IMG/VR virus record: IMGVR_UViG_3300036832_000975
Span: 1,050-65,049 of that record
DNA: 64,000 nt
Source of the DNA: a virus
Reading direction: 5' to 3' (one strand)
Shown piece after piece: positions 27,062-29,380 of this stretch. The notes under the pieces were generated by a model. The model was not told the origin of the DNA. It ran no database searches and was given only the letters and a program-made list of their open reading frames with translations. How positions within the stretch are numbered: the stretch's first letter is position 1; the number at the start of each line of letters is the position of its first letter. Made by a program: the position numbers and the translations under genes.

Positions 27062-29380
27062 TCATGACGCGATGACTCGTTCATACAAACGAAGGATGCT
27101 ATCTTGATTTAACGCACGATTATCTAATAGGTTGTAAATTTCTCGCTCAAAGTCATTCGCAAATAAGCGGACCACCGTCATTTTCCTCGTCTGTCCCGCG
27201 CGATTGAATCGTTCGATTACTTGCGCGTATTGGTCGTGACTGTAGATAGGTGCGAAGAAGATCGTGGTGTCGGCCTCCGTCAGGTTTAGTCCATGGGCCA
27301 TGACCCTGGGGTGGCACAGCAATACCCGCGGGTCAGGGCCCGATTTGAAGTTACGAATGATCCGATTGCGGTCCCTGATACTGACATCGCCGTTGAGAAC
27401 TGCAAGGCTAAATTTATGCGCCGCCAATTCGGTTTCCAACAACCGGGTGATTCCCTTGAACGGAACGACTACGATCACCTTGGCTGTGGCTTGATTGATC
27501 GTAGCGATCAGCTCATTGAGCCTGGTTGAATGGTCGATGGTTTCGTACGTGTCATCCTCTTTATTTTTTACTGACCCGCAATTATGTACAATCATCAGTT
27601 CGCCATACTGGCCACGAACAACGAAGCGAGATCGTGGGCCACAATTCAGGATGTCCATAACTCGTGCGGACGTTTGTTCGCTGCCTGCTCTTTTGCGGTC
27701 GCCCAGCAACAGTTCGCTTTGCAATATGGACCATTGTTGTTGATCCGTTCGATTGACAATCCCGGAGCATACCCACTCGACATGTCCTCCCAGAAGTTCT
27801 CGAATGACCACATCCATCTGATGCAGACCTCGATCCCACGCGCGCCGTAGTTTTTGTAATCCTTGAAGGTAGGATCGGTGCATCGACGACGTAAGTGTAT
27901 CCAAATGCGGTAAGGTCGTGAGCGACTCATTGCATGGGTTGTTATCCATTCGCCATGCCGGCACCCACAGTGCTTGGCATTCGGTCGTTTGGTTGTTCGT
28001 AAGCTCTGGCTTTCGCGTGTGACCTTGCGGCCACAATCGCAGCGGCACAACCATATCGCTTTCTGCGATGATCCTATCGTCGTACCAGCACGCTTCAGAA
28101 CGGTGAGGTAGCCGAACCGGAGCCCGGTTAAATCGATCGCCGGATATGACACAAAGCACCTCGTGCTCACTTGTTAAGTAAACCCCATTAGAGAGTGTTA
28201 CATTCTGTAACCCTTTATCAAGTACTCCTTCATGAGCTACCCACTCCACGCCGTCCCAAAGCTGATCAGTCAGTGCGACGTGTTGGATGGGAATCCAACC
28301 ACGCTGCGTGAGGACTGGTGTATCGATTGCAATGCAGCAAATCTGTCTGAGCTTGTTGAGCGCATCGGCGGCATTAACAGCAGTAATCTTTACCGTCTTG
28401 TGCTGCAGGATCATGTACTCGCGCATGAGCCTGAATGCTTTTTGTTGATCTGTCGTGAGTTGAGTCTGGCGGTTGCTGACGGTTAATGGTGGTAAGCTTA
28501 TGCAGTCCTTCTTGCAAATGCGAAACGCAGGCTGTAACGCATTGAACACGATCTGTTCGTGCCCGTTTACGGGGTTCCATTTATGCTGGCTCACCTGTCG
28601 CATCGTCATGCGGCGGAACGCACCGAAGAACTTCGGCACCCGATCCGGGCAGACCAGTCGCGCGAGCGCCCAGGCATCGGTTGGCCAGTTGGGACATGGA
28701 GTCCCCGTCAATAACCATACCCGTTTCTTGTTCTCGATGGCCCATGCGAAGAACCTGTAGGAGATGTTCCGACTGTTGCGAAAGAAGCTTGCCTCATCAA
28801 GGATAATAAGATCGATATCTTTTCGCCGGCGTACCGCCGTCGCGACTTCTTTATGAGCGATCATGTCGTGGTTGGCGATGTAGAAATCTACGTCCATGTT
28901 GAACGCATTGAGTCGGTACTCACGCGTGCCGTGGGTGACCACAGATGAACGATGCATCAGAATATCGAAAATATCTTGCTGCCAGATGGTTTCGAGAATG
29001 GACAGCGGCGCGAGGATCAACACCTTATGCACTTCGCCGATCGACTTGAGATAGTCGGCCGCCCACAGCGCTGAGAAGCTCTTGCCGACGCCCATCTCGG
29101 AAAGGTTGAGCCCCTTGGGATTGCGAGTATGAAAATCCGCCATCGGTCTTTGATGTGTGAAGGGCGTGTATTTGCCCGGCCAGTCGTATTGATAGAGGAT
29201 CGGCGATGGTACGTTGATCCCCAGCTCGTTGAGCCTGAGCGTGGTCTCGAACGTGTGCTTGATCTGGACGTTGCCTTCGTTGGCGTCGATCATCCGACTG
29301 AGACGGGGAAAGAACGTAAGGATACGCGATGGATTGCGTAGCTTTAGCAGGATGCTTTTGGTTGGTTCGTGGATCATCAT
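27062..29380 (-). CDS. SNF2-family SF2 helicase interrupted by an intein
   Basis: EMGVGKS (I), IILDEAS (II), LTGTP (III), AHGLNLT (V), QVIERFNRAGQ (VI); removing the intein gives KLRQICCGSV. Confidence 0.92.
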   Translation of the reverse strand: MMIHEPTKSILLKLRNPSRILTFFPRLSRMIDANEGNVQIKHTFETTLRLNELGINVPSPILYQYDWPGKYTPFTHQRPMADFHTRNPKGLNLSEMGVGKSFSALWAADYLKSIGEVHKVLILAPLSILETIWQQDIFDILMHRSSVVTHGTREYRLNAFNMDVDFYIANHDMIAHKEVATAVRRRKDIDLIILDEASFFRNSRNISYRFFAWAIENKKRVWLLTGTPCPNWPTDAWALARLVCPDRVPKFFGAFRRMTMRQVSQHKWNPVNGHEQIVFNALQPAFRICKKDCISLPPLTVSNRQTQLTTDQQKAFRLMREYMILQHKTVKITAVNAADALNKLRQICCIAIDTPVLTQRGWIPIQHVALTDQLWDGVEWVAHEGVLDKGLQNVTLSNGVYLTSEHEVLCVISGDRFNRAPVRLPHRSEACWYDDRIIAESDMVVPLRLWPQGHTRKPELTNNQTTECQALWVPAWRMDNNPCNESLTTLPHLDTLTSSMHRSYLQGLQKLRRAWDRGLHQMDVVIRELLGGHVEWVCSGIVNRTDQQQWSILQSELLLGDRKRAGSEQTSARVMDILNCGPRSRFVVRGQYGELMIVHNCGSVKNKEDDTYETIDHSTRLNELIATINQATAKVIVVVPFKGITRLLETELAAHKFSLAVLNGDVSIRDRNRIIRNFKSGPDPRVLLCHPRVMAHGLNLTEADTTIFFAPIYSHDQYAQVIERFNRAGQTRKMTVVRLFANDFEREIYNLLDNRALNQDSILRLYERVIAS
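27581..28336 (-). mobile_element. 252-aa intein in the helicase
   Basis: Block A CIAIDTPVLTQRGWIPIQHV..D.LWDG; block B LTSEH; block F VMDILNCGPRSRFVV; block G IVHN followed by +1 Cys. Confidence 0.92.
27646..28152 (-). CDS. HNH homing endonuclease overprinted (+1 frame) inside the intein
   Basis: IDLTGLRFGYLTV, WLCRCDCG, CGC, YRIW...RRC...Y.NYGARGIEVC.RW, SIERINNNGPY...NC.WAT.KEQ..NKR; GTG 28152 with GAGGT SD (track start 28170). Confidence 0.9.
   Translation of the reverse strand: MSYPAIDLTGLRFGYLTVLKRAGTTIGSSQKAIWLCRCDCGRKVTRESQSLRTTKRPNAKHCGCRHGEWITTHAMSRSRPYRIWIHLRRRCTDPTFKDYKNYGARGIEVCIRWMWSFENFWEDMSSGYAPGLSIERINNNGPYCKANCCWATAKEQAANKRPHELWTS

Follow-up and report, generated by a model that had tools for sequence, protein, structure and literature searches.

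A phage SNF2 helicase intein with an HNH-like endonuclease gene in the +1 reading frame

In the 64,000-nt stretch of viral DNA analyzed here (positions 1,050 to 65,049 of IMG/VR virus record IMGVR_UViG_3300036832_000975, a 65-kb record rated complete; the whole stretch is called the window below), the gene for an SNF2 helicase is interrupted by a class-1 intein, and most of the intein DNA is read a second time, in the +1 frame, as an HNH-like endonuclease gene (Table 1). We consider it very probable that this element is a mobile intein of a non-canonical two-frame design, with a nuclease that is made separately from the helicase. Its anatomy, exact boundaries, stop avoidance in both frames, frame-specific purifying selection, conserved internal start, family membership and presence/absence polymorphism can be read directly from the window and its relatives. 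An earlier sequence-only reading of the window had pointed to such a layout, and its coordinates for the intein and for the start, Shine-Dalgarno (SD) sequence and stop of the nested gene all hold.

Both intein junctions could be fixed to the residue, since five intein-less alleles, one from IMG/VR (L004) and four from JGI metagenomes (L086-L089), with 76-84% extein identity to the window, all read KLRQIC/CG[AS]VK without interruption (a slash marks an insertion point here and below). Splicing blocks A, B, F and G had been assigned to the helicase frame, and the catalytic residues expected of them are present there and invariant in an alignment of 30 relatives: Cys1 in block A, T55 and H58 in block B, D228 in block F and H251-N252 in block G. 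Likewise invariant are the splicing nucleophiles Cys349, which is intein position 1, and Cys601, the +1 residue of the C-extein.

An AlphaFold2 (AF2) model of the intein, built on the alignment of the 30 relatives, is ordered over residues 1-78 and 216-252, with a predicted local distance difference test score (pLDDT) of 70-97, and falls below pLDDT 50 over residues 79-215. A Foldseek search of the PDB with this model placed about 30 intein/Hint structures on top (gp41-1, MchDnaB-1, NpuDnaE, SspDnaB) with probabilities of 0.9-0.99, at E values of only ~0.05. The middle of the insert in the helicase frame (intein residues ~63-225, ~165 codons) contains zero stops and has no family match in Pfam, PHROG or NCBIfam, which bears out its first description as a motif-free, stop-free stretch. 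The model thus presents the insert in the helicase frame as a mini-intein, whose two halves are joined by ~140 read-through residues predicted to be unstructured. A canonical bifunctional intein, with the nuclease in the intein frame, was considered and rejected, as the middle has no family match, pLDDT values below 50 and a ratio of non-synonymous to synonymous differences (pN/pS) of >=1.

A further reading of the insert is that it does not splice at all and is simply tolerated as a loop of the helicase, comparable to the ShiLan domain described below. Hidden out-of-frame HNH insertions without splicing domains do exist in phage methylases, and Pfam calls no intein domain in this helicase. 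However, all class-1 catalytic residues are invariant, the predicted fold is that of a Hint domain, the conserved helicase motif KLRQIC-CG is split by the insert and the splicing blocks are under strong purifying selection, and we regard a non-splicing insertion as very improbable.

The +1-frame open reading frame (ORF) extends from stop to stop over 27646-28170, and its TGA (27646-27648) lies within the block F codons (..DILN..), as had been noted. It matches phage protein families annotated as HNH endonuclease (phrog_374, E 9.5e-55; phrog_3377, E 2.6e-35; also phrog_2081), and a tblastn search with the HNH protein found relatives in 1037 phage records. The AF2 model of this protein (pLDDT 88.5) consists of two parts, of which the N-terminal one is an SH3/Tudor-like barrel with CxCxCG...CGC cysteines. 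Searched against the viral structure library BFVD, the model matched phage proteins named as HNH or homing endonucleases, PVL ORF-50-like proteins and AP2-domain proteins with E values down to 7e-18; Foldseek returned nothing below E 0.2 from the PDB and no convincing match among Swiss-Prot models.

The same two-frame layout recurs throughout a large family. A scan of IMG/VR revealed at least 441 stretches with the element, of which 80 were fetched; 74 inteins, representing 60 unique sequences, were delimited. In 74 of 74, among them those of Hamiltonella phage APSE-1 and Caulobacter phage GB2A, both frames are open and an HNH homologue occupies the +1 frame. A start codon, ATG in 31 cases and GTG in 15, is found at the same position in 46 of the 60 unique relatives, 27 nt ahead of conserved DLTG codons, and 44 of these 46 carry an SD-like purine run 4-16 nt upstream of it. 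The remaining 14 have an in-frame ATG farther upstream, mostly at -42, and all 60 therefore possess an in-frame start. In most relatives the SD sequence is written in conserved ..E-G-W.. codons of the intein, and in the window it lies in the ..H-E-V.. codons of block B. These comparisons make GTG 28152, preceded by GAGGT, the likely start of the HNH gene, in agreement with the original assignment.

The conserved start and SD sequence favor independent initiation over frameshifting, and this bears on the possibility that the two frames are in reality one, either because indels in the assembly hide an in-frame HNH or because a programmed frameshift fuses the nuclease to the N-extein and N-terminal part of the intein. 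The sequence-only reading had itself raised the first of these, an indel that would put the HNH in frame. Such an artefact is excluded because two compensating errors would be needed, yet independent assemblies share the +1 offset. As to a fusion, the HNH has a start codon and SD sequence of its own, and no slippery site was noted by eye, although none was searched for. An artefact or a fusion is therefore hardly credible.

The open helicase frame goes beyond chance. When the HNH protein was kept fixed and synonymous codons were drawn from the usage of the window, 1 of 20,000 trials left the helicase frame free of stops, the mean number of stops being 7.9; after permutation of the synonymous codons of the HNH gene itself, the frame was open with P = 0.0024. 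A naive estimate of 4e-4 for the absence of stops, given beforehand, was of the right order, as the computed probabilities range from 5e-5 to 2.4e-3. The third frame of the overlap has 5 stops in the window, and free-standing homologues of the nuclease in Ralstonia phages RP12 and Cimandef, Pseudomonas phage phiAH14a and Serratia phage Totoro have 15, 2, 16 and 24 stops in the equivalent frame. Among the 60 unique inteins, we observed 0 stops in the intein frame versus a mean of 12.4 in the third frame, and the mean probability of an open intein frame upon synonymous permutation was 0.0023.

Openness of the host frame costs the nuclease nothing, because all stops in a +1 overlap are of the form NNT/AA, NNT/AG or NNT/GA (here the slash separates two nuclease codons) and NNT and NNC are always synonymous. 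In line with this, NNY codons that precede codons starting with AA, AG or GA end in T in 0 cases and in C in 1007 cases among the 60 unique inteins, compared to 2050 T and 2408 C elsewhere. Silent T-to-C changes in the nuclease can thus remove every host-frame stop, and no member of the family breaks this rule (0 of 1007 cases).

Purifying selection changes frame where the two genes overlap, acting on the HNH frame there and on the intein frame in the splicing parts. Within the family, pN/pS over the overlap is 0.08-0.4 in the HNH frame and 1.0-2.3 in the intein frame, and the differences are concentrated at HNH third positions. Over intein codons 1-58, the values are 0.06-0.32 in the intein frame and ~1-4 in the +1 frame, and over the last 22 intein codons the intein frame has mostly 0.04-0.29. 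The nearest nucleotide comparison for the window is the relative L085, which is 33% divergent in the overlap; here pN/pS is 0.35 in the HNH frame and 1.25 in the intein frame. The comparison of stop avoidance and selection across homologs, which had been suggested as a check, hence showed stop avoidance in both frames and frame-specific purifying selection, and the proposal of a homing-type HNH gene that sits in a separate frame of the intein and yields its own protein is consistent with every computational test that we applied (junctions, fold, start and SD, open frames, selection).

A protein search restricted to the intein region retrieved 119 proteins, namely SNF2 helicases and family-A DNA polymerases (PolA), most of which align over all 252 residues. 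The unit of intein and HNH gene is found at six or more insertion points: in SNF2 helicases at the motif KLxQIx/CG and, four residues earlier, at NK/CLQ, and in PolA motifs at YGGK/CVEN, YGGKL/CEN, ..EN/C[TVIC]Q and ..ENL/CQA. Some polymerases contain two copies of the element, and the family includes P45/P46 of Hamiltonella phage APSE-1 as well as Caulobacter phages GB2A/RW/RLK/KcrB. Its sporadic presence and absence, with intein-less alleles at 82-84% extein identity, and its several sites and hosts are those of a mobile element.

Several loci depart from the common layout. The PolA ORF of L050 (L050:14-3520) harbors two family inteins, the second of which has its HNH in the usual +1 frame; the first (L050:976-2004, plus strand; ..QVGKV/CLGGGT...LLVHN/CELML..) carries a nuclease of the same HNH family in the +2 frame. 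An absolute "+1 rule" for the family is ruled out by this intein. In L070, L075 and L079 (about 750-1700), a second intein-like element is located upstream of the main intein. Its N part matches in frame 2 and its C part in frame 1, while frame 0 holds an HNH fragment, and it could be a frameshifted, decaying or split arrangement. The helicase ORF of L090 (L090:3001-5436; 77% extein identity) has no intein at the site used in the window and instead carries a different, 276-aa intein in the P-loop (..LSEMG/C...HHN/TGK..). Antisense to it lies a 174-aa ORF (L090:3494-4018, minus strand) with a helix-turn-helix (HTH) and a canonical HNH motif (..VHHKKG..N..NL..H..), which appears to be an antisense homing endonuclease.

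Mini-inteins of 127-164 aa are present at the same insertion sites in SNF2 helicases (P0070, P0081, P0086, P0095) and in PolA (P0089, P0091, P0105, P0109). The helicase mini-inteins retain the beginning of the overlap (..RAEVRLP..) and have a deletion directly behind it. This suggests that the nuclease gene has been lost repeatedly by internal deletion, which would be the expected decay stage.

Several points weigh against an active, mobile two-frame intein in the window. Splicing, translation of the HNH gene, nuclease activity with its target, and homing are steps that we infer. The window intein is the shortest full member of the family found, with 252 codons of which 67% are dual-coding, and it and its sister P0007 are ~13 residues shorter behind block B, where the ..GW..A.. 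segment is missing. This loss brings the HNH start directly up to block B and could have weakened splicing or nuclease activity in this copy. The nuclease also lacks the ~50-aa C-terminal tail of most relatives (27646-27700 compared to the alignment), a tail that matches HTH_psq or HTH_8 in 11 of 45 members; it is missing as well in L015, L017, L023, L050 and L085. Because the tail is missing, the gene ends within block F, and the dual-coding part amounts to 507 of the 756 nt of the intein. Reduced target binding is a possible consequence; the core is intact and under purifying selection.

With respect to the enzyme itself, searches of Pfam, NCBIfam and PDB sequences with the HNH protein gave no match, and the similarity of its C-terminal domain (model residues 69-163) to the best match among 48,161 PDB chains, the HNH restriction enzyme PacI, is moderate (Z 6.0, root mean square deviation 3.3, 80 residues; exhaustive VIA-align comparison). 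The canonical first His of the HNH motif is replaced by an Arg that is invariant family-wide. The motif reads [DE]-R...Y...N-C-x-W...N, with R136, Y143, N147 and N159 invariant and no His at the canonical position. In PacI, that His is likewise absent and a Tyr serves as general base (PMC4081073), and activity of the +1-frame protein as a nuclease is plausible for this reason. The earlier description of an "intact HNH" is therefore correct for the core, but not for the C-terminal tail and the canonical catalytic His.

The remaining points concern history and sampling. The extein tree pairs the window with P0007, which also has the intein (support 98/96), and their next relatives L086 and L004 are empty; the distribution within this clade fits vertical descent, with one gain or with losses. 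A search of sequencing runs found the sequence in one run only, its probable source, a soil metagenome kept as contigs, and in no RNA run.

Some of these observations could also indicate that the homing endonuclease is decaying, and that the element, having lost the tail and effective homing, persists de facto as a long-linker mini-intein and is approaching the stage of the homing cycle that mini-inteins represent. The absence of the HTH tail, the overlap remnants in same-site mini-inteins, which show HNH loss by deletion, and the vertical relationship that the window and P0007 appear to have would all agree with this. On the other hand, the ORF is undamaged and has all family-invariant residues, its start and SD sequence have been kept, and selection is seen in the HNH frame and not in the intein frame even in the comparison with L085, which is equally tail-less. 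Moreover, an unselected +1 frame should gather stops, as the third frame has done both here and across the family. Decay of this kind thus seems unlikely.

According to the preferred reading of a mobile two-frame intein, the helicase mRNA would be translated straight through the intein, and the two ends of the insert, ~78 residues on the N side and ~37 on the C side, would form the Hint splicing domain, while the ~140 joining residues would have no function of their own and need only avoid stops. The intein would then excise itself and join ..RQIC to CGSV.., giving a 520-aa SNF2 helicase. On the same mRNA, ribosomes would initiate independently at the internal SD and GTG 28152 in the +1 frame, and the product would be a free nuclease of 168 aa, composed of a beta-barrel/Zn-ribbon at the N-terminus and a beta-beta-alpha-metal (HNH-superfamily) domain resembling that of PacI. 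During mixed infection, intein-less helicase alleles would be cut or nicked by this nuclease at their empty site (..CAGATTTGC/TGCGG..), and repair from the occupied allele would copy intein and nuclease across (homing).

A recurrent feature of this phage is a 19-bp palindrome, GTGTTACAWWWTGTAACAC, of which the window contains 8 copies versus 0.01 expected (28195-28213, 26459, 35481, 39893, 43658, 44858, 45310, 47295). Most copies are located 30-80 nt upstream of minus-strand gene starts, and the first one lies within the intein. The palindrome was found neither in the inteins of relatives nor in 90 fetched loci of other genomes. A promoter scan detected no sigma-70-like promoter inside the intein, and RNA folding around the HNH start was no better than in shuffles (z -0.2).

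The palindrome raises the possibility that the nuclease has been domesticated, i.e., placed under the phage's own regulation and serving the phage, e.g., by excluding competing phages or processing DNA, and not only the spread of the intein. With its end 42 nt upstream of the HNH start, the intein copy is placed much as the palindrome is ahead of genes at seven other sites, and it is absent from relatives' inteins. However, this copy has two mismatches and its regulatory role is putative, neither a promoter-like site nor a special RNA fold was found, and in its many hosts the nuclease family acts like a mobile unit, so that domestication seems quite unlikely. A further reading, that the window holds the most compact member of a family without formal description in the literature searched, inserted at no fewer than six PolA/SNF2 sites, and that its nuclease is additionally wired into the regulatory circuit of the phage via the 19-bp palindrome, is conceivable, although we regard it as rather doubtful. 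If true, one stretch of DNA would carry three codes: intein residues, a regulatory site and the start signals of a nuclease.

Among the closest known systems are the P45 polymerase intein of APSE-1 with its nested P46 and the inteins of the Caulobacter phages. They share with the window the intein family (CxA..T.VLT..GW.PI...WDG.EWV ... NCGPR.RFV..IVHN/C), the HNH family (42-43% identity to the HNH of the window) and the +1 offset. In contrast to the window, their host gene encodes a family-A DNA polymerase (site ..YGGKL/CEN..), and their inteins, of ~306 aa, have kept the segment after block B and the region coding for the HNH tail. RefSeq annotates P46 as "HNH endonuclease" nested in polymerase P45; in the literature searched, we found no description of the APSE-1 two-frame layout as such, nor of the family of PolA and SNF2 inteins with a +1-frame HNH.

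Out-of-frame endonucleases in inteins have nevertheless been reported. According to papers that cite it, a proposal by Gorbalenya from 1998 already placed an endonuclease in another frame or strand of an intein. Work from the Gogarten laboratory in 2025-26 documents three related cases, in actinophage inteins, in the cyanobacterial dnaX intein and in the ShiLan domain, and the HNH inteins listed there are in-frame only. In the actinophage inteins of that work, as in the window, the extein frame encodes the splicing domain and the same DNA contains a separate ORF for the homing endonuclease; they were proposed to have arisen when a free-standing endonuclease gene invaded an intein. Unlike the window, they use "frame 3" or the antisense strand, other endonuclease families, and TerL, minor capsid, thymidylate synthase and DNA polymerase genes as hosts. 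The cyanobacterial dnaX intein (Phillips, DeSimone, Gogarten, bioRxiv 10.64898/2026.09.14.751524, who credit Gorbalenya 1998 with the first proposal) likewise has an overlapping ORF within the intein, coexisting full, mini and empty alleles, and a low dN/dS in the endonuclease frame with an inflated one in the extein frame over the overlap, but its nuclease belongs to the LAGLIDADG family, its host gene is bacterial and chromosomal, and its ORF is in the +2 frame.

Two further systems share only part of the design. The ShiLan domain of a mycobacteriophage DNA methylase (Arsenault et al., Genes 2025, PMC11855218) is, like the element in the window, an insertion without host-frame stops that contains an alternative-frame HNH gene, which starts with GTG a few codons inside and stops where the insertion ends. 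It has no splicing domain and no detectable ribosome-binding site, and its authors invoke leaderless initiation and a tolerated loop, whereas in the window a full class-1 intein surrounds the HNH gene and an SD sequence precedes it. In the so-called fractured genes (Dassa et al., NAR 2009, PMC2677866), the homing endonuclease gene is also translated separately from the flanking intein halves, but there the host gene is split into two ORFs and splicing occurs in trans, whereas the ORF in the window is contiguous by out-of-frame read-through. The literature check that had been called for thus speaks against a high novelty of the element, since out-of-frame intein endonucleases and hidden phage HNHs have been published and APSE-1 P45/P46 is so annotated in RefSeq. 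The principle of the layout is already published, and the window, where the host is an SNF2 helicase, has its main value as a well-documented example.

The element illustrates how an intein can house a free-standing nuclease gene while the host gene stays unbroken, and it is plausibly an intermediate between mini-inteins, split inteins ("fractured genes") and canonical inteins with an in-frame endonuclease. It also matters for annotation, as standard gene callers return a single long helicase or polymerase, so that the intein, which has no Pfam match, and the nested nuclease gene both go unnoticed.

Table 1. Coordinates of the helicase gene, its intein and the nested nuclease gene in the window.
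Feature	Position	Strand	Evidence and remarks
SNF2 helicase ORF	27062-29380	-	772 aa/codons; Pfam SNF2-rel_dom residues 87-349, Helicase_C residues 621-729
N-extein, residues 1-348, ending ..KLRQIC	28337-29380	-	Pfam SNF2-rel_dom 87-349; alignment with intein-less alleles L004, L086-L089
Class-1 intein, 252 codons, helicase residues 349-600, CIAID...MIVHN, then Cys601 (CGSV)	27581-28336	-	Exact absence in intein-less alleles; invariant C1, T55, H58, D228, H251, N252; Foldseek top matches all inteins
N-terminal splicing part, intein residues 1-78, blocks A and B	28103-28336	-	AF2 pLDDT 70-97; intein-frame pN/pS 0.06-0.32 in codons 1-58
Read-through linker, intein residues ~79-215, open frame, motif-free, predicted disordered	27692-28102	-	pLDDT <50; intein-frame pN/pS 1.0-2.3 over overlap; no family match
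C-terminal splicing part, intein residues ~216-252, blocks F and G, ..NCGPRSRFVV..IVHN	27581-27691	-	pLDDT 87-94; pN/pS 0.04-0.29 in most pairs
C-extein, beginning CGSVK.., Helicase_C domain	27062-27580	-	Pfam Helicase_C 621-729; alignment with intein-less alleles
HNH-like endonuclease gene, +1 frame, 168 aa + TGA, covers 507/756 intein nt	27646-28152	-	phrog_374 E 9.5e-55; AF2 pLDDT 88.5; PacI Z 6.0; BFVD phage HNH matches E to 7e-18; HNH-frame pN/pS 0.35 vs L085
SD sequence GAGGT, 5-nt spacer to GTG 28152, within block B codons (..HEV..)	28158-28162	-	Sequence; start position conserved in relatives
Near-perfect copy of GTGTTACAWWWTGTAACAC, 2 mismatches	28195-28213	.	Ends 42 nt upstream of HNH GTG; also encodes intein residues GLQNVTL

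A nucleotide search of a phage collection with the helicase gene gave no match. The public gene call for the helicase is P0006, a protein of 743 aa that starts at Met30 (window 29293-29380). Since homologues align from the first Met (MMIHEPTKS..), the 772-aa ORF is probably the true form of the helicase rather than the 743-aa P0006.

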